A DNA stretch of 64,000 nucleotides from a virus (taxonomy: Duplodnaviria; Caudoviricetes), in the IMG/VR virus record IMGVR_UViG_3300006153_000003, one strand, 5' to 3'. Under the pieces are notes generated by a model. It was given only the letters and a program-made list of their open reading frames with translations, was not told where the DNA came from and did no database searches. Position 1 is the stretch's first letter; every line of letters begins with the position of its first letter. The translations under genes were made by a program, and so were the position numbers. Positions 1 through 59,173 of this stretch are shown one piece after another.

Positions 1-25
1 TAAAGCGTATAGAGGAGGAATATTA

Positions 26-685
26 ATGATTTCTACAAAAGATATGGCATTTTATTATCCTAATGGTGAAGAAATCAAAAAAGAAATATTTTTAGATTTC
101 TATAGTAAATGCTATTATATGAATAATAATGTTTTTGTCGAAGATGAGATTGAGAAATTATTAGATAAAGGTAAAAATAATTTGACAGAAGAGGATTTGT
201 TTAATATTTTAGCTTGGAAGATTGGGAAGATTAATCACAAAAAATCCAATCCAGATGATGGTATAATATATTATAAGGATTGGAACAAAGAACTTTTAGA
301 AGCTAAAATATATAAAGATTCATTGGACAAAGAGTTTTTTTCTTGCATTAAAAAAAGTTTATTAGAAATTAATGGTGAAGAATTGATCGATTATATAAAC
401 AAATTGAAAGATATAAATCATCTAGGACCAGTGTATATTGTCACATTGAGATATTTTTCAACAAAAGGGAAATATCCAATTTATGATAGATTTGCATATA
501 AAGCAATACAAGCCATTTTAAATAATCATATTCCTTTTGATTTAATTCCTGAAAAAAATACATTAAATAAAAACATTAATGATATATATAATGAATATTT
601 AAAAAAATTACAAAATATTTTTCCAGAGAATTTTAGCGAACGAAAAGTTGACCAAGCATTGTGGGTTTATGGACATTTATTTTAA
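26..685 (+). CDS. AT-rich cargo protein, possible OGG/HhH DNA-glycosylase-like fold
   Basis: 219-aa ORF with GGAGG RBS; LAWK, GPVYIVTL, PIYDRF and RKVDQALW motifs resemble OGG-fold proteins; function is inference. Confidence 0.5.
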   Translation: MISTKDMAFYYPNGEEIKKEIFLDFYSKCYYMNNNVFVEDEIEKLLDKGKNNLTEEDLFNILAWKIGKINHKKSNPDDGIIYYKDWNKELLEAKIYKDSLDKEFFSCIKKSLLEINGEELIDYINKLKDINHLGPVYIVTLRYFSTKGKYPIYDRFAYKAIQAILNNHIPFDLIPEKNTLNKNINDIYNEYLKKLQNIFPENFSERKVDQALWVYGHLF

Positions 686-703
686 ACACTTTGATTAATA
701 ATA

Positions 704-731
704 TTGTCACTCAACTAAGTATCTAATATCT
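704..731 (-). repeat. Putative recombination site C (direct repeat of 2888-2915)
   Basis: TTGTCACTCAACTAAGTATCTAATATCT, 25/28 identical to 2888-2915. Confidence 0.75.
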
Positions 732-763
732 ATATTATAATTTGATTTTTAATTCTTAAAGTA

Positions 764-798
764 ATAAAAGACATCAGTACCTATCTGGTGTCTTTTAT
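764..798. terminator. Bidirectional intrinsic terminator
   Basis: ATAAAAGACATCAG...CTGGTGTCTTTTAT hairpin between convergent genes. Confidence 0.7.
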
Positions 799-837
799 CA
801 ATTATATGTAATTATTGTAGTTGATTATTTTGTGCAT

Positions 838-1830
838 TTATGCACTCAAATATTTTTTATGATGATACTGTACACTTGCTTGGTCAACAGTACAGTAAAT
901 CATAGTAGTTTCGAGTTTTGCGTGTCCTAAGAAGCGAGAAACTTCTTGTAAGGGCATTCCTCTATTCAATGCGTTAGTTGCTGCTGTCCGACGAAAACGA
1001 TGTGGATGAGCGTCTTCAACACCAGCGCGTTTGCCAATGCGTCGAATAATATCTTCTGCACCAGCTTTTGTTAATCGTTTGTTTGGTTTCCTTAATCCTA
1101 CAAATAAAGCAGGGTTATCATCATCCCGGCTATCTAAATATTCTTTCATGTACATACATGATCTGTCGTTCAAGTAAACAATTCTTTCTTTTCCTCCTTT
1201 CCCATACACGAGTAAGTCTCTTGTCATGAAATTCAAATCTTTTCTATCAAGACTTAAAAATTCACTTACTCGAACTGCTGTACTATACAAGAATTCTAAC
1301 ATTGCCTTATCTCTGAGATTAGTGCAGTTTCGAGATAGTAATTCCCTTTCTTCGTCTGTGTAAGGTTTCTTTAGAATCTGTTCCACCTTGATATCTGATA
1401 CGAGAACCATAGGATTTTTACGGATTCGATCACGGTCACGTAACCAGGTGAAAAAGCTATTAAAGACTGCTCGTACATTTCTTAAGGTTACATTTGCGAC
1501 TTTCCGTGTTGCTTTGTAGGTTCTCATGTATCTGGATATATCACCATCTGTTATCATATCTACAGGTTTGTTGATGTATGATAACAGACGATGTAATTCA
1601 TACTGGTATCGTATTGTTGTTTCTCTGGATCTGCCTTCAAGCATCTTTGCAATAATGAAATCTTCCAAGTCATCCATCCAACTGTCGTCTATAACCATTA
1701 GTTCCGTATTTTTGACTAAATCACAATCAGCAAAAGAGATTTGCATGATTTCTTTTAATTCCCCTAATTGTTTTTCATCTAAAATGTCTTGTGCTTTTCT
1801 CAATACTTCCATAATTTTTTGTTCAACCAT
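838..1830 (-). CDS. Tyrosine recombinase (XerC/D-like), probable shufflon invertase
   Basis: SAM-like N-terminal domain; TAVRVSE (R), GKGGKER (K), HPHRFRRT (HxxR), LGH and TTMIY catalytic motifs. Confidence 0.92.
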   Translation of the reverse strand: MVEQKIMEVLRKAQDILDEKQLGELKEIMQISFADCDLVKNTELMVIDDSWMDDLEDFIIAKMLEGRSRETTIRYQYELHRLLSYINKPVDMITDGDISRYMRTYKATRKVANVTLRNVRAVFNSFFTWLRDRDRIRKNPMVLVSDIKVEQILKKPYTDEERELLSRNCTNLRDKAMLEFLYSTAVRVSEFLSLDRKDLNFMTRDLLVYGKGGKERIVYLNDRSCMYMKEYLDSRDDDNPALFVGLRKPNKRLTKAGAEDIIRRIGKRAGVEDAHPHRFRRTAATNALNRGMPLQEVSRFLGHAKLETTMIYCTVDQASVQYHHKKYLSA

Positions 1831-2020
1831 ATTTCACACACTCCTTTATACTCTTTTGGTTTCAATATGGTTCTTCTGTATTTATTGGAAAAACATACCA
1901 AAAATATGTTCGGTATAAAGGAGAGTGAGATAAGTATAGAAAATTTCTTGCTTTCCATCATGTAAAAATTTGTTTCGAAATGTTATATTGTAATCGCGCA
2001 GGTAGGAAAATCAATGGAAA

Positions 2021-2362
2021 TTGCTTACTCATCTAAATGGCAATTTTATAATGATATCGGGAACTGGTGGTAGTTTAGAAGCTATAGAGGGAGTAAGTGA
2101 AATATATTTTGATGATTATTGTAGATTTTGGCATAACAATTTTATAGGATGTGTAAGTGTTACTTTCACTAATTTTACAGAAATACCAGCTTGGCGTGGA
2201 TTTATACGATTACCCTTTAAAACATATCGAGAGTGTGTGACACATCTATACGATGCACCAGACATTCAAGTGTATGCAGGTACAGGAACTGCAGTGAATA
2301 CTATGTCACGCCCCATACCTGTGGGGAAACATCATTTTGACATGGTAGTTTCACTCATCTAA
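2021..2362 (+). CDS. Silent tail-fibre C-terminal cassette 1 (begins LNGN at 2033)
   Basis: No strong RBS; frame opens through site A; beta-rich ~110-aa domain. Confidence 0.6.
   Translation: MLTHLNGNFIMISGTGGSLEAIEGVSEIYFDDYCRFWHNNFIGCVSVTFTNFTEIPAWRGFIRLPFKTYRECVTHLYDAPDIQVYAGTGTAVNTMSRPIPVGKHHFDMVVSLI
2026..2043 (+). repeat. Putative recombination site A (inverted relative to sites B and C)
   Basis: TACTCATCTAAATGGCAA versus TACTTAGTTAAATGGCAA (reverse complement of 2888-2905), 15/18 identical. Confidence 0.7.
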
Positions 2363-2394
2363 CATAGCATTCCTGTAAATTGAATTTCGCGACT

Positions 2395-2898
2395 TTACAC
2401 TGGATACTTGTAAAATCGAACGCCTACGCTTTGTTCAACTGTAGAATATATTCTCCATTTGTCACTTTCCCAAAAAATATGTTCTAGGCATTCATTAGTC
2501 TTATTATGATCGAAAACAACAGGTATGTAATTAAATGCATTTGGTGCATTGAGGATTTCAACAGAATGATCCGCAACTGTATTGAAAAAAATGTCGACAT
2601 ATCCTAAATCAGAGGTTCGCACATAAAACTGCCAATCTCCCCAATTAGTACCATCATAGAATTTAGTAGCTAACGGTGTAGAACCGATTCCGGTTAAAAT
2701 CACTTTTATATTTGTCTGGAGTCTTTTTAAAATAATAGCGTTTCCATAAGCATAGCTAAAGTTTGGTAAATCTTCACCCTTATATCCGGCTCCACTTAGT
2801 ATATACATAAAAAGCCCTTGCGCTGCAATCTCTACTGCTTTATTCAAAACACTTGTTGATAAAACGGATTCGTTTGTGCTTCCTAACTTGCCATTTAA
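2395..2898 (-). CDS. Silent tail-fibre C-terminal cassette 2 (begins LNGK; pyocin-knob-like W-x-x-W segment)
   Basis: Frame extends upstream of 2847 to TAG|TTA AAT GGC AAG inside site B; FYDGTNWGDWQ segment. Confidence 0.65.
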   Translation of the reverse strand, partial: LNGKLGSTNESVLSTSVLNKAVEIAAQGLFMYILSGAGYKGEDLPNFSYAYGNAIILKRLQTNIKVILTGIGSTPLATKFYDGTNWGDWQFYVRTSDLGYVDIFFNTVADHSVEILNAPNAFNYIPVVFDHNKTNECLEHIFWESDKWRIYSTVEQSVGVRFYKYPV

Positions 2899-2915
2899 CT
2901 AAGTATCTAATATCT
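2888..2915 (-). repeat. Putative recombination site B
   Basis: TTGCCATTTAACTAAGTATCTAATATCT. Confidence 0.75.
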
Positions 2916-3065
2916 TTCTTCAATTTACACAATTTCACAGAAAATAGTACAAATGAAAGAGCAATTTCATCTGTATTATTTTCACTCATTTCAGAGTAAA
3001 ACAAGGTTTTCTAGCCTTGTTTTTTTTATACCCAAAATTCAAAAAAAGAAAGGAAGAAAAATTTT

Positions 3066-4073
3066 ATGGCACATTTATTTGTAATCGCAGGACACGGACA
3101 CGGAGATTCAGGAGCAGTTGGGAATGGTTTCACAGAAGCAGAACGAGTAAGAGCATTAGCAAGTAGAATTGGTGAACTTGGAGGTTCAAATGTAACACTC
3201 GGAGATATGAGTCGTGACTATTATGCTGACAATGGAATATCAAAGCTTAATATTCCGAAGGACTGGGCGATTATCGAACTCCATATGGACAGCGGAGCAA
3301 GTTCAGCAAAAGGTGGTCACGTAATTATTTGCAGTGGATTAAATGCAGATGCATACGATAATGCACTTGCAAACTTTATTGGTGGAATACTTCCGGGGAG
3401 AAGCAACAAAATCGTAGCAAGAAACAACTTAGCAAATCCAAGACGGGCAAAAGCAAGAGGATTTAATTACCGTCTGTTAGAATGCGGATTTATATCTAAT
3501 GCAAATGACGTAGCTATTTTCAATAATAGAATGGATGAAATCGCCCGGGGAATTCTTGCTGCATTTGGAATCGGAGCGTCTGGTAAAGTAAATACGCCTG
3601 CACCGACTCCAGTGCCGACTCCGACACCTAAACCAACCAACAATACAAATGCTGGTGGCACGCAGGCAATGAAAAATGCTCAGGTACATATCAATAATTT
3701 CTGTGGGGCAGGTCTCGTTGCAGATGGAATTATTGGTCCCAAAACAAGAAAAGGACTTATTAAAGCTCTTCAGGTGGCTTTAAACAAGGACTATAATGCC
3801 AAACTTGTAGAAGATGGTATTTGGGGTCCTAAGACAAAAGCTGCATTAGGAAATCACTGTGTAGGCCGTGGAGATACTCAATATCTTGTGACTTTTGCAA
3901 AAATTGGACTTACTGCACTGAGCTACTTTGGGAATGCGGTAGAATCTCCTGGAAAGTTTGGATCTGATTTTGAAAAATCTGTTTATAATTTCCAGGTTGC
4001 AACTGGTTTAACGAAAGACAAAATTGTAGGGAAAAATACAATTAATATGATTCTAACAAAACTTGGATGTTAG
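3066..4073 (+). CDS. Endolysin: N-acetylmuramoyl-L-alanine amidase (Amidase_3) with PT linker and peptidoglycan-binding domains
   Basis: IAGHG..DSGAVG, E, ELHMD and LLECGFISN motifs; DGIIGPKT and DGIWGPKT repeats. Confidence 0.92.
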   Translation: MAHLFVIAGHGHGDSGAVGNGFTEAERVRALASRIGELGGSNVTLGDMSRDYYADNGISKLNIPKDWAIIELHMDSGASSAKGGHVIICSGLNADAYDNALANFIGGILPGRSNKIVARNNLANPRRAKARGFNYRLLECGFISNANDVAIFNNRMDEIARGILAAFGIGASGKVNTPAPTPVPTPTPKPTNNTNAGGTQAMKNAQVHINNFCGAGLVADGIIGPKTRKGLIKALQVALNKDYNAKLVEDGIWGPKTKAALGNHCVGRGDTQYLVTFAKIGLTALSYFGNAVESPGKFGSDFEKSVYNFQVATGLTKDKIVGKNTINMILTKLGC

Positions 4074-4096
4074 TACATCTGCTATTTGATATGATT

Positions 4097-4136
4097 ATAG
4101 GGTAGTTGAGATTAATTCTCTTCTACCCTATTTTTT
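4097..4136 (+). terminator. Intrinsic terminator after endolysin
   Basis: ATAGGGTAG...CTACCCTAT followed by a T-run. Confidence 0.75.
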
Positions 4137-4392
4137 ACGATTTGTTATATTCTTTGATTTTCCTTAAAATTCCCCTATATATCTTATCTTTTAATAAATG
4201 GATATACTCACGAGATATGGGGTATTCAGACATAAACTCCGGATTATCGTGGAAAAATTTCTTTTGTTCTTCATCTGGGAGATAGATTGTATATTCCTCA
4301 TAGAAATCAAGGTCACTTCCGAACGCATAACTAAACAACCTCCGTATTTGTTCAGGGGTCATACTAATAGCATTTAGTTGGTTGTGCATCAT
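4135..4392 (-). CDS. Hypothetical protein
   Basis: 85-aa ORF with GAGG RBS, divergent from the HTH gene. Confidence 0.6.
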   Translation of the reverse strand: MMHNQLNAISMTPEQIRRLFSYAFGSDLDFYEEYTIYLPDEEQKKFFHDNPEFMSEYPISREYIHLLKDKIYRGILRKIKEYNKS

Positions 4393-4722: not shown

Positions 4723-4884
4723 ATGAGAAAATTATAGTAGAATTTGTTCTCGTTCCGAGATAATAAATAATCAATAATAATACAACACATTAAAAAATAT
4801 TATAAGAGTTTTTAGGCCACTTACAATTAAATAATTATTTTCAGTATTTATAGCTATGTGATAGTTGGGTTGATTTTGATTTTG

Positions 4885-4917
4885 TTTTCTAACAGTTGTC
4901 TAACACTTTTCTAACAC
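4885..4917 (+). repeat. attP left arm: three 11-bp direct repeats
   Basis: TTTTCTAACAG / TTGTCTAACAC / TTTTCTAACAC. Confidence 0.8.
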
Positions 4918-5105
4918 TTGTGCAGAAAAAATGCAAAATTTTTGTAAACCATTGTGAATTTGCACAAACCATAAGATTAGCGCATTCTAAACATTTTTGT
5001 TGCATTTTCCTTGTATTCTCAAGGGTTTACCAATTTAATTTAGTTGTAATATATAGTGTAAATCATTATAAAATTTTGTACAATTTGCTAAAAATAACAC
5101 CTCAA

Positions 5106-5204: not shown

Positions 5205-5235
5205 ATTACTCCGTTGTGAAGTGCTCAATACCTTT

Positions 5236-5268
5236 TTTTCTAACACTTTTCTAACACTTTTCTAACAC
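5236..5268 (+). repeat. attP right arm: three perfect 11-bp direct repeats
   Basis: (TTTTCTAACAC)x3. Confidence 0.85.
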
Positions 5269-5296
5269 CTGTGTAAGCAAGTGAATTGTTAGGATA

Positions 5297-6526
5297 TCAT
5301 ATAATTACTTGTTTTGATAGTGTATCAACCATATTTTTCTTAGAATTTTGATTAACATGAACATATATTCTTGCCGTAGTATCATAATTTGCATGACCTA
5401 GCCACTCTTGGATTTCTTTCATCTGATACCCTAAGTTTAACAACAAAGAAGCACAACTATGTCTCAACCCATGAAATGTTATGGGTGGAAGTTCATTTTT
5501 TTTAATCACTTTTGAAAAAGTATGAGTAATATAAGTCGGTGTAATCAAATTACCATTTTCGTGAACAAATAAATATTCTAAATTATCAGTGTTATACGCA
5601 TTCCCGTAAATTTTCATATAATACTTTTTATCTTCAATTATCTTTTTCAAATATTCTTCTAATTCTGAAAATAACGGGAAACTTCTTATTGAAGATTCGT
5701 TTTTCAATTGATTTTTCTTTAAGTGCACAGTTCTATATTTGTTTTCAGTATCGTCTAACATAAACCCGGTCACTACGCTATGTTGTATATAAAGAATATG
5801 ATTAATAAAATCAACATCGCTTATTTTAATTCCAACCACTTCTTCTCTTCTTAACCCATAATAACTTGCTAATAACACAGGTATTAAAATTTTACTATCT
5901 TCAGATTTCAGAATATTAATTAATTCTTGAATTTGATCTATATTATACCACTGTGCTTTTTTTGTATCACATTTAGGCTTGACAACATTATCAATAGCTT
6001 CTTTCCTGATGTATCCTTCTTTTATAGCTTTTGATATTATCGACATTAAAGTTGCATAGTGTCGTTGCAGTGACGTTCCTGATAATTTTTTTCTTCCATC
6101 ATATCCATTCTTTTTTTCATCAAAATATCGATTAATGTCATTAGAATTTAGATTACAAATTTTTATCTTTTGTTTATAAAAATATGGATACAGATGCACT
6201 CGAACTGTTAATTCATCTGAGGCAAAAGTTATATCATCAACTCTACTCTTTTGAGTCTCAAGCCATTGCTTCATATAATCACAAAACAATAAAGACTCTT
6301 TATTATTCAAAAATTCTATATTTGTATGTTTAGAAGAATTGTATTTAGTCAATTCTTCTTCCAACATTATCTCGGCCTTCTTTTTATTTCCCCTTATATC
6401 TAATTTTGTATTTATCCATTTAAGTTTTCTTTTGTTTTCCTTATCATATAAATTTAAGACGATATACCATTTCCCATTTTTCTTTTGAACACTTCCTGTA
6501 ATCTCTTTTTTATTTTGGGTTTTCAC
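5297..6526 (-). CDS. int: Phage integrase (tyrosine recombinase with N-terminal arm-binding domain)
   Basis: YGLRREE, FHGLRHS, WLGH, TTARIY motifs; adjacent to attP. Confidence 0.95.
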   Translation of the reverse strand: MKTQNKKEITGSVQKKNGKWYIVLNLYDKENKRKLKWINTKLDIRGNKKKAEIMLEEELTKYNSSKHTNIEFLNNKESLLFCDYMKQWLETQKSRVDDITFASDELTVRVHLYPYFYKQKIKICNLNSNDINRYFDEKKNGYDGRKKLSGTSLQRHYATLMSIISKAIKEGYIRKEAIDNVVKPKCDTKKAQWYNIDQIQELINILKSEDSKILIPVLLASYYGLRREEVVGIKISDVDFINHILYIQHSVVTGFMLDDTENKYRTVHLKKNQLKNESSIRSFPLFSELEEYLKKIIEDKKYYMKIYGNAYNTDNLEYLFVHENGNLITPTYITHTFSKVIKKNELPPITFHGLRHSCASLLLNLGYQMKEIQEWLGHANYDTTARIYVHVNQNSKKNMVDTLSKQVII

Positions 6527-8462: not shown

Positions 8463-8470
8463 ATTGAAAC

Positions 8471-10202
8471 CAATGTTAACAACCTAACTCAAGCAACTAC
8501 AACATATAGTGTTTCTTTTAATTGGCACGGGATTCCCTGTGCCTTTCTTTATTTATAACCACTAATACGATTAAAATATTGCACAAAATTCGCCCATAAA
8601 AACCAGCATATTTACTATTGACATAAGCTCCAAAAAATGCGGCGCAGCCCTTGTTTATATTACTTTTTTAAGGGGGCTGCATCGTATGAATTTAATTCAA
8701 ATCTTAGTCGATATTATCTGTAACACATTACTTGATCCACATGTCCTTGAACGGGCCAGAAACAGAAAAGGGGCTTTTACACGCAATTGCGGGAAACTTC
8801 CCTATTGGACATTGATCAAACTGTTATTAAGAAATTCCAAGAAAACTATTTCTTCATCACTGGATGAATTCTTTACCGAATTGCGGCATATATCAGGAAT
8901 TCCAATCTCTGATACTGTGAAATGTTCCCAACAGGCTTTCAGCAAGGCCCGTTCCGGCATTGATCACTCTATTTTCAAAGAATGCTTCGAACGTGTACTT
9001 GACTTCCTTTGCAGCAGGGATTCCCTGGATTTCCATTCACGTTTCATGGGTGTATGGGGACGGCAGATCATTGCTGTTGACGGCTCTAAAATACCTCTTC
9101 CTAACCGTAAGACTCTTCTTGATAAATACGGCAGCATAGGGAGAGGCCAAAACTCTCCCACTGCCATTGCCAGTGTTGCTTTTGATGTACTGAATCACCG
9201 CATCCTTGATGCACAGCTCGAACCCATGAGCGTCGGTGAACGTACCCTTGCCATAAGGCATATGCAAAATATAAAAAGCAAAGCACGGACGAATCTATTA
9301 TACACCATATTTGTCTTCGATAGGGGATATGCTTCAAAAAATTTATTTTCTTTTATCGAAGACACCTTACATGCCGGATATCTCTTCCGGTTAAGGACTA
9401 AATTTAACACGGATATTGATGCACTCCCTGTACCGGCGGATCGAAATGGAATCAGTGACTATATCTTTTTCCTTGATGGCAGGAAAGTACGCATCCTTAA
9501 ATTTTACCTCCCAAGTGGGACGGTGGAAACGCTGATCACAAATGATTTTGACCTTGCCAAAGAACTGTTCCGCCAGTGTTACTTCCTTAGATGGCCGGTG
9601 GAGGAGAATTATAAGCTTGTCAAAGAAAAGATCGGGCTCACTAATTTCCGGGGCTATTCCGAGAACTCCGTTCTCCAGGAATTCTGGATATCGGTATTGC
9701 TTGCAAACCTGGCTCTTGCCATAAAGCGGGAGACGGACGGCATTGTTGACAGCACCATAAACCAGAAAGGGAATCAGAACAAATATATGACAAACATGAA
9801 TGAGCTTGTCGGATACCTGAGCCGTCACATAGGAGAATATATGGATGCTGATACAGACACAGAAAAGTATGGCATCATCCGCTGTATATTTGATTTTGCC
9901 GTATCTCACCGGGTGCGTGACAAAAAGGGCAGCGGGGAATCAAATCTACGTACAACTCCAAGAAAAGTCAAACATCATTACAATAACAAGACTACACACT
10001 AATACCATTTAAGAAAGGTGGTGGTGCCAGTTTCTTTATATTCTACAATACAAACGCCATATCTAAAAAAACAGCTGATAGCAACCAAGGGGAAAGTCTG
10101 CCCTTTTTTCAGTGTATTTTAATCATTTCTATCATCTGCTATTATTGGTTTAATAGCTTAATCCTATTGTGATATCATGCCACTACTAAGTTGTTAACAT
10201 TG
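8471..10202 (+). mobile_element. IS4-family insertion sequence
   Basis: Terminal inverted repeats CAATGTTAACAAC / GTTGTTAACATTG; 10-bp target duplication ATATTGAAAC at 8461-8470 and 10203-10212; higher GC. Confidence 0.93.
8686..10002 (+). CDS. IS4-family DDE transposase
   Basis: AVDGS, FDRGY and YFLRWPVEENYK (YREK) motifs; SQQAFSKAR. Confidence 0.93.
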   Translation: MNLIQILVDIICNTLLDPHVLERARNRKGAFTRNCGKLPYWTLIKLLLRNSKKTISSSLDEFFTELRHISGIPISDTVKCSQQAFSKARSGIDHSIFKECFERVLDFLCSRDSLDFHSRFMGVWGRQIIAVDGSKIPLPNRKTLLDKYGSIGRGQNSPTAIASVAFDVLNHRILDAQLEPMSVGERTLAIRHMQNIKSKARTNLLYTIFVFDRGYASKNLFSFIEDTLHAGYLFRLRTKFNTDIDALPVPADRNGISDYIFFLDGRKVRILKFYLPSGTVETLITNDFDLAKELFRQCYFLRWPVEENYKLVKEKIGLTNFRGYSENSVLQEFWISVLLANLALAIKRETDGIVDSTINQKGNQNKYMTNMNELVGYLSRHIGEYMDADTDTEKYGIIRCIFDFAVSHRVRDKKGSGESNLRTTPRKVKHHYNNKTTH

Positions 10203-10502
10203 ATATTGAAACACCTCCTCATTCTGGCATATAATACACATAGCTCGGATTTTGCTTTCCCACACCAGTCGCCTCGCATTCCTTTAAATACTGATATGTA
10301 TCACATATTTCATTTAATGTTTTAATGGCTTCTCCTTCTGATTTGTATCTTCCAAGATTGCATGAACTTTCAGTATTACCATTATATGACTGCACAAATT
10401 ATTCTGAATTTTGTAAAACTATACAAATAGAATCTATACCTTCCATCACAACTATCGTTGTTTTATCCTGAGATCTTATAAGTATACCTTTATCCTCGTC
10501 TT

Positions 10503-10772
10503 CTAATATTCTTCATAATCTATCTCACATTTTTCTTCCGGCGCTGACTTCTCTGCCTCATTGACTTTTGTAAGAGCTATATTCCTATCAAAAAATACAA
10601 TTTTTTCAATATCAGTATTATTGAAGAGATATGCCCGTTTATCTCTTTTGTCTACGGCAACAAACCAGGAATCTCTTACTGTGCGCACTATTAATTCACA
10701 CACTTCATAAATCCTTGTCCTAGGAATAACCCGGGCATAATATAAACTATCTTTTCTCTTTAATCGCACCAT
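10503..10772 (-). CDS. Hypothetical phage protein
   Basis: 89-aa ORF overlapping the nrdG stop. Confidence 0.6.
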   Translation of the reverse strand: MVRLKRKDSLYYARVIPRTRIYEVCELIVRTVRDSWFVAVDKRDKRAYLFNNTDIEKIVFFDRNIALTKVNEAEKSAPEEKCEIDYEEY

Positions 10773-11395
10773 AATACAACTTCACCTTGCTGCAATGATT
10801 TTTGCACATCTATTACCCTCTGGTTTCTGGATCCACGCCATTTAAGTGTTATATCTCTCTGATCTTCAATATACCTACCATCTATAAGCACATCACACTG
10901 GGAAACTATTTGCTGCCTTTTCCATCTGCCTATAGATAACTTCTCCATAGTCTGAGGATGATAATGCCATTGAGGATCAAATATATGGTCCCATTCATAT
11001 CCAGTGTAAAGCCAAATAGATTTACGGGGTGTTGAAAGGCGGATTTCATTCGGATTAGCACACAACATACAGTGTTTGTATTCTTTATTTTGCACTATAT
11101 CTTGTTTGATATTGTACCGAACATTCACCTCAGTCACTAAATCTAGGACATCATCAAGATTTTCTTCAAAAAGCGGGTCCCCTCCCGTCAATGTCAGCCC
11201 AGAAATATAGTTTTTATCAAGTTCTCTGAATAATTCTTTTTTTGATGCTTTGCCAAATGAGATACCACTCTTAGCAGCCCATGTTTGAGGATTTTGACAT
11301 CCCTTACATCTATGAGCACAACCTGAGAGCCATAATACCACTCTCAAGCCTTCCCCGTTGCATACATCTTCTTTATCTATTTTAAAATAGTTCAT
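10760..11395 (-). CDS. nrdG: Anaerobic ribonucleotide reductase activase
   Basis: NGEGLR, CxxxCxxC, GGDP and WRGSRNQR motifs; follows nrdD. Confidence 0.95.
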   Translation of the reverse strand: MNYFKIDKEDVCNGEGLRVVLWLSGCAHRCKGCQNPQTWAAKSGISFGKASKKELFRELDKNYISGLTLTGGDPLFEENLDDVLDLVTEVNVRYNIKQDIVQNKEYKHCMLCANPNEIRLSTPRKSIWLYTGYEWDHIFDPQWHYHPQTMEKLSIGRWKRQQIVSQCDVLIDGRYIEDQRDITLKWRGSRNQRVIDVQKSLQQGEVVLWCD

Positions 11396-11403
11396 ACACT
11401 CTC

Positions 11404-14400
11404 CTAAAATTTCTGATGTTTTATCCGCATTTCAACCTCTTGTTGTTTACCTTCGTTAAACGCCGTTTTATAATCTCCTGTCAAATATCCGGTTACTCTA
11501 CGAAGTCTACGAATTTCATTACATCCACACATAGGGCATTCTTTATTTATATCATCACAGTATCCGCAATTTATACACATATCATTTGGAACATTGACTG
11601 CGAAATAAGGTATATCTTTATCCATTGCATAATTAACGATAGACTCAAGTGCATCCAAATTATTTTTAACGCTACCATTGAGTTCAACATATGTTATGCA
11701 TCCTGCACTACTATAACCAGTAAGTTGAGACTCAATATCAATCTTTTCAGTTGGAGACATTTTAATCCATACAGGAACATGTATAGAATTTGTAAAAAAC
11801 TTTTTATCAGATATTTTAGGAATTACTCCATATTCTTCTTGAAATTTCTTCATTGCTGTAAAACACAAATTTTCAGCTGGGGTATAATAAACTCCAAAAT
11901 TCAACTTATACTGTTCTTTAAATTCTGTGCATCTGTCTTTAAATAATTGTTCAATTCGTTTTGCTAAATTCATGCCTTTTTCTGTAGTATGATCACAGTC
12001 AATAAGTATCTGAAGTGTTTCTGCTAATCCTAATTGCCCCATTGCAAGTGTTCCATGCTTTAGAGCTGAGCGAATATTTTTTCCATCATATCCTTCCATA
12101 ACTTTATTTTCGTACATAAATTTAGCTGAATCAGAAGATTGGCTACAAATCCATTCAAATCTTTCAAGCAACATATCCTTTGCTTCATGAATTTTTTCAT
12201 CCAGAAGGTTAAAAAAATCCTCGATTATATATTCTTCTGTACAATCAATATCAAAATCGTCTATCGTTCTCTTTTTTGATCTCATTGCCAATGTCGGCAT
12301 AATAATTGTTACAGGGCAAATATTGCCTCTACCATCTTTTAATTGTCCAAATCCATTAATATCCCAACCATTTGCTGTTCTGCAATTATGACTATAAATT
12401 CCACTGACCTCAAAATGATCACTTTCAGTTTCTACATCATAACTGTATTCCAACATATTACTGATCGGTGCTATACTATTTATTTCTGACTTAAAAAAAT
12501 AATTACTGCTTTCATTTTCTATATAATTATCAAGTTTTTTCTGTGAAACAATAAACGTTAGCAAATCATCATTAGGTACAAATTCAACTCTATATCTTAT
12601 TGCATTTGGATTCTTTTTTGAATAATGATTCTGATATACTGCACATGGCATTCCTAATGATTGCGCTAATGCCATTTGTTGTAATGCTAATTCTTTATTT
12701 GTTGAACCAAGTTGTACAACCGATACATTATGTCTACTAGCATTTATATAACCATCTGCATCTATCATACCTGCTAAAAAACTCAACTTCGCATTATAGT
12801 TCCATGAGAATACTTCATTTGGAATATGTCTTCTTGCTTTTGTAAGTCCTTCATATTTTGTTGATAAATAGTCAATAATATTTGTAACATTACCCATAGA
12901 AAATAAATCTTTATATCTTCCTTTATATCCTCTATGTCTTTCTATTACTTTGACAGAATTATCAAAACATTCTTTCATTCGTTCAATATAAGCAAGTTCT
13001 ATATCATTTTCAGTATCAAATGCAATAGATGATGATAAATGTCCATCATAGCATCCGTCACACAAAATGAACCCTAATAACCAAGCTTTATGCTCATCAA
13101 AAACAAGACTTTCTTCATAATATTGAGAAGGATTTATACTTATAATATCATTCCTTTTAAGTTCATCGGCTCTAATCCTTCCCCGATTTGTATGGAATGG
13201 ATGATCTATTGTACAAATTAATGAACGACCATGTGACATTTTAATATTTAGCCATTCCGAGCTTGTATTCCTAATAACCTTTTTAACTGAAACAAAACCT
13301 TTTTCTGTATCATAAATTTTTACATTGTCAACTTCTAAATATAAATTCTTATTATTTCCATTTTGTTGTTTAGCATTAAAATAGTCAGAAAGACGGTTCC
13401 ACATACGTTTAAAAGATTCCACATATAAATTATCTTTGAATTTATACGTTATTATTTCGTTTCCTTCTACACATCCCATCGTACTAAAATATGTTTTAGG
13501 ATCGTTTCTGTCATATCCCTTATTACCAGACCAATCTACATTTGCATAATTCGGATATAATCGTTGAGCTGTAGATTTAAGTGCTAACCTATACAAGTCA
13601 TAATTCGGATCTTCTGGTTTCCTATTTACACCGTTCATACATTGAAAAATTCCACAAGGGAAAATACTTGTCTTATGTAATTTGCCAATCCCCTCAATCG
13701 AAACTTCTAACAATGCTTTTGTTATCATTCTTCCCTCTGGTTCTGTACAAGTTCCATAATTAATGCTAGTGAACGGTAATTGATTCCCTGATCGACTTTG
13801 TAAAGTATTCAAATTGTGATAGAGTCCTTCGACGGCTTGATATACTTCTTTCTCAGTTTTGTCCATAGCATATTTATATGCTTTTGATTTAAATTCGAAA
13901 TATGTAGAATCTTTAACTGATGGATTATCTTTCTCGTAATCTTTTAGATTCGTTTCGATCCACTCATTATCCATACATTCGATATATTTCATTCCATCGA
14001 GATAATGCTTATAAAAACTTTTTCTCACATATGGGATCATAGTCCAATCAAGATGTGTAGCTGAAACACCACCAAACTGTTGCAAAGATTGTAATTGAAA
14101 TATAACTGCCACTAATTGAAAAGCTGTACTTACTGATTGTGCAGGTCTTACATCTGTTTGTCTTGTATTAAATCCTTCTGCTAATAATTTGTCAAAAGGA
14201 ATTGATAAGCAATTATGACATCCTACGGCATAACTATTTAAATCATGAATGTAAATTTCGTTATTTAAATGGTTGTTTTTTGCCATTTCTGACATACAAT
14301 TATCCAATGCATATTTTTTTAAAACAGTATCACTTGCTTCACCAACACGTCCACCAAATGATTTCTCATCAACATTTGCATTTTGATTTTGAACGTTCTT

Positions 14401-14727
14401 AGCATTAAGTTTTTCAGAAATATCTTTCATAAGTTGAGTATTTTTTTCTCTAATAGCTGTTCTATTATTTCTATATATAATGTACCGTCTTGCAACATCT
14501 TTTCGATTGGATATCATTAATTTTTCTTCTACTAAATTCTGAATCTCTTCTACAGTCATATCTTTATTTAATGACGCTATGTAATTGGCAATATCCCTTG
14601 CTTTTTCTTTTGCATATGCAGTTTCATCACTATCAACATCAAAAAATGCTTTCAGAACAGCAATCTTAATTTTTTCTTTATCAAATTTAACTTTTCGTCC
14701 ATCCCTTTTTTCTATCTGCAATAACAA
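11404..14727 (-). CDS. nrdD: Class III anaerobic ribonucleotide reductase with ATP cone; intein-containing
   Basis: ATP cone, YIHDL, HNCL, MG|CR, C-terminal CxxC...CxxC and RRVTGYL glycyl-radical motif. Confidence 0.96.
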   Translation of the reverse strand: MLLQIEKRDGRKVKFDKEKIKIAVLKAFFDVDSDETAYAKEKARDIANYIASLNKDMTVEEIQNLVEEKLMISNRKDVARRYIIYRNNRTAIREKNTQLMKDISEKLNAKNVQNQNANVDEKSFGGRVGEASDTVLKKYALDNCMSEMAKNNHLNNEIYIHDLNSYAVGCHNCLSIPFDKLLAEGFNTRQTDVRPAQSVSTAFQLVAVIFQLQSLQQFGGVSATHLDWTMIPYVRKSFYKHYLDGMKYIECMDNEWIETNLKDYEKDNPSVKDSTYFEFKSKAYKYAMDKTEKEVYQAVEGLYHNLNTLQSRSGNQLPFTSINYGTCTEPEGRMITKALLEVSIEGIGKLHKTSIFPCGIFQCMNGVNRKPEDPNYDLYRLALKSTAQRLYPNYANVDWSGNKGYDRNDPKTYFSTMGCVEGNEIITYKFKDNLYVESFKRMWNRLSDYFNAKQQNGNNKNLYLEVDNVKIYDTEKGFVSVKKVIRNTSSEWLNIKMSHGRSLICTIDHPFHTNRGRIRADELKRNDIISINPSQYYEESLVFDEHKAWLLGFILCDGCYDGHLSSSIAFDTENDIELAYIERMKECFDNSVKVIERHRGYKGRYKDLFSMGNVTNIIDYLSTKYEGLTKARRHIPNEVFSWNYNAKLSFLAGMIDADGYINASRHNVSVVQLGSTNKELALQQMALAQSLGMPCAVYQNHYSKKNPNAIRYRVEFVPNDDLLTFIVSQKKLDNYIENESSNYFFKSEINSIAPISNMLEYSYDVETESDHFEVSGIYSHNCRTANGWDINGFGQLKDGRGNICPVTIIMPTLAMRSKKRTIDDFDIDCTEEYIIEDFFNLLDEKIHEAKDMLLERFEWICSQSSDSAKFMYENKVMEGYDGKNIRSALKHGTLAMGQLGLAETLQILIDCDHTTEKGMNLAKRIEQLFKDRCTEFKEQYKLNFGVYYTPAENLCFTAMKKFQEEYGVIPKISDKKFFTNSIHVPVWIKMSPTEKIDIESQLTGYSSAGCITYVELNGSVKNNLDALESIVNYAMDKDIPYFAVNVPNDMCINCGYCDDINKECPMCGCNEIRRLRRVTGYLTGDYKTAFNEGKQQEVEMRIKHQKF
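12385..13473 (-). mobile_element. Intein (363 aa) with LAGLIDADG homing endonuclease in nrdD
   Basis: Begins C (CVEGNE), block B TIDHPF, LLGFILCDG and LAGMIDADG motifs, ends SHN followed by Cys. Confidence 0.95.
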
Positions 14728-57912: not shown

Positions 57913-59173
57913 GCCAATATCCAACGTCCTTCCCTTCTTTCAAATTCATTGTTTTCTTTACATCATTGCCATTTACAGCTAAATCTTTTAATGAAAAACA
58001 TTCTTGTTCCTGTAAAATTTCTTCAAGAATATCTTCTATATTATTTACTTTCTCTATTCGAGATTTTTCATAGTCTGTTTTTTGTCCTTTAATATCTGCT
58101 TTTCCAACTTCTAACAACCGTCTAAATTGCTTTTCGCCGATTTTATTAAGCCATCTCTTCACGTACTTTTTTCCGACTTCAAAAGTAGCATCATGATAAT
58201 ATACCAGCTCTACTACATTATTTCTGGTTCCATTATCAAATCTAAGACGTTTCATAATAGAATCTGTAATATCAGCACTTACTTTCCCATGACCTTTGAA
58301 ATGCCTAATACCATCTTCTCCATCCTGATAAGAATGTGGTTTCCCAAAATCGTGAAAGAAAACTGCAAGCCTTACGATCAAATCATCTGACTCACATTTT
58401 TCTATTGCATGAATCGTATGACCAAATACATCATACGCATGGTATGGATTATTCTGTTGGAAATCTATCATATCTTTTAATTCTGGAATAAACAGAGAAA
58501 ACACATCAGGATACAGCACTAATTCAACACAGAATTGGTTAGAAGCAACTATTTTACAAAATTCGCTGTTAATTCTTTCAACGGAAATATTCTTTAACCG
58601 CTCATATTGTCGTTCTATTTCAAACATTGTTTCTGGGAACCCCGCAAAACCTAACTGCGCTTCAAATCTTATTGCTCTCAGTATCCGCAAAGCATCTTCA
58701 TTAAACCTCTCTTCTGCGAAACCAACGCAACGAATCTTTTTATATTTAATATCTTCCATACCATTAAACGGATCAATCAGACCAGTTTTAGGATTGTATG
58801 CCATAGCATTAATCGTAAAATCTCTTCTCTGTAAATCTTCAACAAGATTCTTTGTGAATGTTACATTATCAGGTCTACGATTATCAGAATAATCTCCATC
58901 AATCCGATAAGTTGTTACCTCATATGGTTCTTTATTTATCAGTATTGTTACTGTACCATGTTTCAGACCAGTAGGAATAACTTCTTCATTTGGAAATGCT
59001 TCTAATATTTCACCTGGCATGGCAGATGTACAGATATCATAGTCATGAATTGGCCGTCCTAATATACTATCTCTAACTGCTCCACCTACCATATATGCTT
59101 CATACCCACATTTCTCTAATTCCTGTATGATATAATTTACCGGCGCAGGAACTTCTATATTAAATCTTTCCAT
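57821..59173 (-). CDS. cca: CCA-adding tRNA nucleotidyltransferase with HD domain
   Basis: VGGAVRD, DYD, RRDFTINAMA, EDALRILR and HDFGK motifs. Confidence 0.92.
   Translation of the reverse strand: MERFNIEVPAPVNYIIQELEKCGYEAYMVGGAVRDSILGRPIHDYDICTSAMPGEILEAFPNEEVIPTGLKHGTVTILINKEPYEVTTYRIDGDYSDNRRPDNVTFTKNLVEDLQRRDFTINAMAYNPKTGLIDPFNGMEDIKYKKIRCVGFAEERFNEDALRILRAIRFEAQLGFAGFPETMFEIERQYERLKNISVERINSEFCKIVASNQFCVELVLYPDVFSLFIPELKDMIDFQQNNPYHAYDVFGHTIHAIEKCESDDLIVRLAVFFHDFGKPHSYQDGEDGIRHFKGHGKVSADITDSIMKRLRFDNGTRNNVVELVYYHDATFEVGKKYVKRWLNKIGEKQFRRLLEVGKADIKGQKTDYEKSRIEKVNNIEDILEEILQEQECFSLKDLAVNGNDVKKTMNLKEGKDVGYWLNEILKRVIDGELKNNRNDLIYWMKEKAIS

Follow-up and report, generated by a model that had tools for sequence, protein, structure and literature searches.

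The 64,000-nt stretch of DNA studied here (IMG/VR record IMGVR_UViG_3300006153_000003; the whole stretch is called the window below) carries at its left end what we read, with a probability of about 0.9, as the rightmost third of a multiple-inversion system, a six-site shufflon, of a temperate phage, in which the phage's Xer-like tyrosine recombinase swaps the ends of a tail fibre. The host is probably a Lachnospiraceae gut bacterium; it is placed to family level only, the bacterial flank of a related prophage (L001) being at most 82% identical to one sampled Lachnospiraceae genome. A first-pass annotation of the region had described two cassettes beside a XerD-like recombinase, and had proposed that a tail-fibre gene beyond the left end of the window receives them by exchange. 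The cassettes and the recombinase are present as described, but the system is larger than noted there: it comprises six sites and three cassette pairs, and two blocks lie between sites.

Two of the sites, B and C, are located in the window. Site B (2020–2043, plus strand) consists of the arm ATTGCTTACTCATC (2020–2033) and the core TAAATGGCAA (2034–2043); site C (2888–2911, minus strand) consists of the arm TTAGATACTTAGT (2911–2898) and the core at 2897–2888. The longer string shared by the two (TACTCATCTAAATGGCAA at 2026–2043 on the plus strand, TACTTAGTTAAATGGCAA at 2888–2905 on the minus strand), the L-N-G-N and L-N-G-K openings and the convergence of the two cassettes had all been reported by the first-pass annotation and are found where it placed them. 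Translated in the fibre frame the core reads (L)-N-G-K/N. The sites have no dyad symmetry: each is one loose arm, with a pattern common to all sites (~cTTACTnAny, or ~TTACTnAny), ahead of the 10-bp core, which is invariant in all 103 site instances of the census described below. The 18-mer by itself is statistically weak (three matches vs 0.89 expected in the 64-kb window), and the core occurs three times in 64 kb vs 0.40 expected, with three or more copies in 1 of 100 shuffles. The third core copy, at 57966–57975, is attributed to chance because it has no arm. The within-window statistics for the site repeats are thus only suggestive; decisive support comes from other contigs, because the same core is the exact rearrangement breakpoint there. 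Across contigs, the base preceding the core and the base following it each remain with their own side, therefore the exchange takes place inside the 10 bp. The arm side of site B is tied to the sequence preceding the recombinase gene, and in other contigs this arm precedes nine different cassette families; judged from these arrangements, site B would be a silent parking site. The arm side of site C is likewise tied to the sequence ahead of the endolysin gene and, beside a protein-identical endolysin, precedes at least six cassette families (L007–L016); since its arm holds an in-frame TAG, site C would also be a silent parking site.

Approximately 45 metagenome contigs were retrieved by exact-protein matching, for which the queries were the recombinase, the endolysin, the 219-aa protein and two proteins of the baseplate module (339-aa and DUF6558). 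One of these, L033, belongs to the same phage strain as the window (99.8–100% identity) and has another layout: L033 1–5760 corresponds to window 8644–2885 reversed (99.98%), L033 6787–8830 to window 2044–1 reversed (100%), and L033 8907–9784 to window 2028–2905 in the same orientation (99.8%). All breakpoints between the two are at cores. The window's cassette pair is found in L033 between a site within a tail-fibre-like gene and site D, which is located just upstream of the gene for the 219-aa protein; cassette 1 stands behind site D, and cassette 2 forms, in frame, residues 195–361 of a 361-aa fibre protein, identical to the window cassette at 167 of 167 residues. The constant part of the fibre comprises 194 residues and ends in ...ADALTELNG, after which the proteins are fully divergent. 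In the orientation of the window, the constant fibre gene is left of position 1. The proposed swap onto a tail-fibre gene left of the window is therefore borne out by the L033 fusion, the upstream gene with an in-frame copy of the site that such a swap implies is the constant fibre gene of L033, and rearranged isoforms, also anticipated by the first-pass annotation, are found both between the window and L033 and between L001 and L003, with breakpoints in the sites. The layout of L033 is converted to that of the window by two inversions, the fibre site with C and then B with D. From these inversions our model predicts that, left of the window, D would carry LNGNINTISRG... and the fibre gene would carry LNGKFAVTIIEG...; the pair predicted for the fibre slot, with LNGKFAVTIIEG... 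on the fibre arm, occurs in L046 and L052.

Concerning the identity of the target gene, it is tail-fibre-like and located between baseplate genes and the endolysin, and is not the pilV of conjugative plasmids. The constant part and the neighbouring 339-aa protein have weak to moderate matches to tail-fibre PHROGs, and one of the cassette families contains Phage_fiber_rpt and Peptidase_S74 with a tail-fibre PHROG match (E 4e-11). Among IMG/VR and species genomes, only distant relatives of the constant part were found.

A reciprocal swap is seen between two further contigs: in L001 the fibre gene carries NLYQKIPWK... and site B carries KKIDKNDINKK..., and in L003 the arrangement is exactly the reverse. 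Our census of the approximately 45 related contigs contains 103 site instances and 24 cassette families of 81–289 residues, and 15 of the 24 families stand behind two to four different arms. Eleven arms can be told apart: TF, inside the constant fibre gene; B and C, as described above; D, tied to the sequence that precedes the 219-aa gene; G, G' and F, at the upstream (left) edge of a baseplate module; and E, X1, X2 and X3, which lie on the outermost left side, next to the cassette pair that precedes that module. It could be argued that the contigs differ through homologous recombination or mosaicism between related strains, the 10-bp motif being a conserved codon string at a domain boundary. 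Backbones with identical endolysin proteins carry at least 11 cassette families vs the six that are possible per genome, so some exchange between genomes also occurs, and the cassettes themselves are mosaics of two subdomains. However, the window and L033, 99.8–100% identical, differ by clean inversions with breakpoints inside a core which, at 10 bp, is too short for homologous recombination; the L001/L003 swap is reciprocal, a dedicated recombinase is always present, and the core is also found in non-coding arms (C, E and F), which a protein constraint leaves unexplained. We therefore regard mosaicism as quite an improbable account of these differences and inversion at the shufflon sites as the preferred one.

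The full six-site layout, with three convergent cassette pairs, is present on a single contig (L043). From the left it reads: an X site, a pair, and G'; the baseplate module (proteins of 58, 55 and 85 aa, DUF6558, and proteins of 1172, 62, 74 and 339 aa, followed by the constant fibre part); TF, a pair, and B; the recombinase and the 219-aa protein; D, a pair, C and the endolysin. With no site between its two convergent members, a cassette pair moves as one piece; families 1 and 2 are always found together in the census, matching such pairwise movement. Compared with the fixed flanks, the recombinase module occurs in either orientation, and it is found downstream or upstream of the baseplate module (upstream in L036, L037 and L048), and L010 contains a single pair flanked by the fibre site and C. 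Inversions alone suffice to produce every layout seen, those of L010 and L036 included. The 8-kb baseplate/fibre module, though bounded by two sites, is forward in every contig whose orientation can be judged, which would imply selection against that inversion or control of it. Also, 13 of 59 contig ends are at most 130 bp from a core, which fits what mixed isoforms in one sample would give in an assembly graph.

Based on these layouts, the recombinase would act on the asymmetric sites, each a loose arm with the invariant core, and strand exchange within the core would join the 194-residue constant part to the cassette behind the partner site. The cassettes would be stored as three convergent pairs, each moving as a unit, and the pairs would be separated by two between-site blocks, namely the recombinase and 219-aa module and the 8-kb baseplate/fibre module ending in the constant fibre part. 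In the isoform captured by the window both local cassettes would be silent, cassette 1 on B and cassette 2 on C, and the expressed fibre gene would be located about 1.1 kb left of position 1. A tentative extension, about which we have considerable doubt, is that the sites let whole blocks invert and reorder and may admit cassette pairs from co-resident phage genomes, giving an integron-like tip pool at the level of the population.

Cassette 1 (2033–2362, plus strand; 109 codons and a stop) opens with LNGNFIMISG..., and cassette 2 (2395–2898, minus strand; 167 codons and a stop) reads LNGKLGSTNES...RFYKYPV; the two are convergent, with 32 bp between them, and both are apparently silent in the window. 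Immediately ahead of cassette 2 is an in-frame TAG (2901–2899, minus strand), and upstream of cassette 1 the frame is shut by another TAG, at 2003–2005. Neither cassette has a Shine–Dalgarno motif at a working distance from an in-frame start; AGGAAAA at 2004–2010 serves an out-of-frame open reading frame (ORF) of 19 codons from the ATG at 2014. The TAG ahead of cassette 2 and the want of a usable ribosome-binding site (RBS) had already been pointed out in the first-pass annotation and are confirmed in the sequence. Gene callers do annotate ORFs such as MLTHLNG... from a TTG in the arm of site B, as would be expected if cassettes 1 and 2 were independent small genes read from internal or upstream TTG or ATG starts, an outcome that the annotation had set against its own proposal. 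With an RBS at working distance absent, a TAG directly ahead of cassette 2, cassette conservation that starts at the L-N-G codons, and the same cassettes occurring as in-frame C-termini of the fibre protein, we find independent translation hardly credible, and the cassettes are best regarded as alternative fibre ends.

No Pfam, PHROG or NCBIfam family was found for either cassette. Cassette 1 has no family match, and a search for longer proteins homologous to it found none; compared with a homologue of equal length it shows 62% identity and a ratio of non-synonymous to synonymous substitution (dN/dS) of 0.27, and is therefore a maintained coding segment. Members of the cassette 2 family (ending RFYKYPV) are fused to the constant part in the database proteins P0001 and P0002. 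The predicted model of cassette 2 has two beta-rich subdomains, with a predicted local distance difference test score (pLDDT) of 76, and its best fold matches are receptor-binding and tailspike tips (phage K gp144, the phi812 baseplate, a pyocin fibre and the phi11 receptor-binding protein); from the model we take only a hint that cassette 2 resembles a receptor-binding tip, and no family is assigned from the fold matches. As a separate observation on the make-up of the cassettes, the tip of L034 (L034 5869–6426 vs window 2398–2898) has the N-terminal subdomain of cassette 2, and its C-terminal subdomain is that of another family, ending ...KEII/KEIL.

The Xer-like tyrosine recombinase (838–1830, minus strand; 330 aa) is the presumed shufflon invertase. 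It contains the Pfam domain Phage_integrase (E 1e-39) and a SAM-like N-terminal domain, with no arm-binding N-terminal domain; no serine resolvase/invertase domain was found at the locus, the recombinase domains there being Phage_integrase only. Its closest PDB match is the Pyrococcus XerA (4a8e, E 3e-32), to which the R, H-x-x-R, H and Y catalytic positions align. A recombinase adjoining the cassettes, as in the earlier description, is confirmed in the sequence. Against NCBIfam the protein scores below all the curated equivalog cutoffs: just under that of XerA (216.6 bits, cutoff 220) and far under those of XerC (161, cutoff 335) and XerD (156, cutoff 330). Based on its constant adjacency, this recombinase is probably the enzyme acting on the sites. 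It is at most 39% identical to any protein in deposited phages. A 31%-identical Xer-like 'integrase' is found between the tail and holin/endolysin genes of Clostridium phage phiCp-D (L059, 21639–22616), an isolated phage of C. perfringens; cassettes are not evident beside it, and this homologue from the same genomic niche may differ in role.

The recombinase shares its module, between sites D and B, with the 219-aa cargo gene (26–685, plus strand), which has its own RBS. The 219-aa protein has no Pfam, PHROG or NCBIfam match. Its gene adjoins the recombinase in all close relatives; the related shufflon of Lachnospiraceae bacterium 3-2, described below, lacks it. A protein atlas gives for the 219-aa protein hypothetical clusters only, one of them with an OGG-type domain in 14% of its members, which is a lead only; in L036 and L048 a 230-aa variant takes the place of the gene. 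Positions 759–803 may be a terminator common to the two convergent genes, and were not called by the terminator scan.

A third, degenerate copy of the site is present at 704–731 on the minus strand (pseudo-site A), at the start coordinate of the first-pass annotation, which did not describe it. It has 19 nt identical to the arm of site C and a degenerate core (TTGAGTGACAA vs TTAAATGGCAA, three changes), and read on the minus strand it would give a tail of 10 codons only. Together with site C it forms a direct repeat of 33 nt (704–736 and 2888–2920; 85% identity, 19 nt identical) that flanks a tyrosine recombinase, and the 2.2 kb in between could accordingly be a small integrative element made up of the recombinase and two cargo ORFs, with the repeats as attL and attR. 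However, the flanks of the left repeat are the same in 21 of 21 instances across contigs and it is the breakpoint in none; the cassette side of the right repeat is exchanged by inversion with four or more other sites; and none of the contigs lacks the 2.2-kb stretch and carries a single hybrid site. An integrative element is thus highly improbable, and we rejected the att-site reading of the two repeats because the flanks of A are identical in all 21 instances and A is never a breakpoint. Going by its constant flanks and altered core, 704–731 is a fixed degenerate pseudo-site within the shufflon.

Several points weigh against reading the locus as a phage shufflon that switches tail-fibre tips. 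The constant fibre gene is outside the window, and its position relies on L033. The isoforms come from assemblies, partly of different samples. The assignment of the enzyme to the sites is by adjacency only, and the phage also carries a classical integrase (5297–6526). Cassette 1 is never found on the fibre gene in the sampled contigs. For cassette 2, the similarity to known folds is weak (Foldseek E 5e-3; VIA Z no higher than 6.5) and may be due to a beta arrangement that is widely shared. What can be read directly from the assembled sequences are the sites, the exact breakpoints, the reciprocal swapping of cassettes and, within one strain, the joining of cassette 2 to the fibre gene; we infer that switching would take place within one population, and that the tips would differ in receptor specificity and hence in host range.

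Tail-fibre tips decide which bacteria a phage attaches to. If a common temperate phage of gut Clostridia can switch among six tips, this would help to explain how such phages keep pace with variable host surfaces, and why their contigs break in short-read assemblies. In current annotation the parked cassettes are labelled 'hypothetical proteins' and the invertase 'integrase'. With the core and the L-N-G junction as a marker, isoforms would be easy to count in metagenomic reads.

Concerning the rest of the window, the shufflon is followed by a terminator-like hairpin with a T-run (2998–3023, plus strand), located between site C and the endolysin, the sole such site in 1–4300 and with a putative function as terminator. 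The endolysin (3066–4073, plus strand; Amidase_3 and PG_binding_1) is the fixed right flank of the shufflon. Megablast of window positions 1–4200 against deposited phages gave no match. The 409-aa classical integrase (5297–6526, minus strand) is beside a probable attP region; two clusters of 11-bp tandem repeats (TTTCTAACAC-like) at 4871–4933 and 5222–5273, just past the 3' end of the integrase gene (5297), could represent either binding sites of the arm type for the integrase or the attP region. Beyond the endolysin on the right (5297–64000), nearly all large ORFs are on the minus strand for more than 58 kb, so that the fibre-to-lysin block reads opposite to most of the phage in the window. 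Compared with the related contig L005, positions 8467–10211 form a 1.7-kb insertion with a 438-aa DDE_Tnp_1 transposase (8686–10002, plus strand), and this is therefore an insertion sequence element inside the early region of the phage. A large anaerobic ribonucleotide reductase (NrdD) gene is found at 11404–14559 (minus strand), and, judging by the Pfam domains listed for the identical L007 gene, includes an intein with a LAGLIDADG homing endonuclease; it is adjoined by a gene for a radical-SAM activase (NrdG-like) at 10760–11395.

Comparing the locus with known inversion systems, the first-pass annotation had likened it to Gin and Cin. Gin (Mu), Cin (P1) and Min (p15B) are serine invertases that work with an enhancer and Fis. 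Their outcome is the same as here, i.e. alternative C-termini of the tail fibre are obtained by DNA inversion as a host-range bet-hedge, but the enzyme class differs; the likeness is limited to function because the present enzyme is a tyrosine recombinase. The shufflon of R64/IncI plasmids, the classical asymmetric-site example, uses the tyrosine recombinase Rci and asymmetric sfx sites (PMC11852207). As in R64, a single constant gene acquires alternative C-termini through multiple inversions; however, the target in R64 is pilV, a conjugative-pilus adhesin, whereas here it is a phage tail-fibre-like gene. Also, rci is outside the invertible DNA and the present recombinase is on a block between sites, and by NCBIfam the present enzyme is nearest to the Xer families.

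Compared by description, the closest published relative appears to be the Rin shufflon of Bifidobacterium breve and B. longum prophages, described as the first phage-encoded tyrosine invertase, with an 11-bp asymmetric site and isoforms detected by comparison of prophage and virion sequences (Mavrich et al. 2018, PMC6109161). Both systems have a phage-encoded Xer-like tyrosine recombinase that lacks an arm-binding domain. In both, a short asymmetric repeat heads each variable C-terminal cassette (11 bp in Rin; 10 bp with a loose arm here), and a single constant N-terminal gene (receptor-binding or fibre) receives the cassettes, with the site in frame (the constant gene being outside the window in our case). 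The differences lie in the arrangement: the variable genes of Rin are described as tandem with the recombinase at one edge, whereas here there are convergent pairs in three places. Also unlike Rin, the recombinase is on an internal block found in both orientations and at two positions, an 8-kb baseplate module lies between sites, the locus includes a cargo gene and a pseudo-site as well, the host phylum is Bacillota, and the site sequence is another one. According to a preprint (PMC13596623), BV01-like phages of Phocaeicola vulgatus have three cassettes and six variants in a compact 1.7-kb region, with all configurations seen in reads. As far as that text describes them, they share with the present system several cassettes, directional 10-bp motifs with conserved extensions, a neighbouring recombinase and the swap of the distal tail fibre; their motif (TGGGAGAACT) and their host phylum differ.

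A related, smaller shufflon is found in Lachnospiraceae bacterium 3-2 (L022 9900–12600). It has a 63%-identical recombinase, two convergent cassette pairs that are ~79% alike as a 420-nt inverted repeat, a 151-aa fibre-end gene with ...TEPGFVMDGKTAADAFAQLNKK..., and a core, AAATTAAACAAAAA, encoding L-N-K-K/N. Systems of this type thus form a family among phages of Lachnospiraceae. Our literature searches returned no description of such a system in phages of Lachnospiraceae or other Bacillota, which is weak evidence of absence. The present locus extends tyrosine-recombinase shufflons past the phages of Actinomycetota and Bacteroidota in which we found them described, and its split layout is unlike the compact published ones. 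It is a known kind of system with a new architecture, which combines three convergent cassette pairs, a recombinase–cargo block found in both orientations and at two positions, an 8-kb baseplate block flanked by sites, and a large pool of tips held in common.

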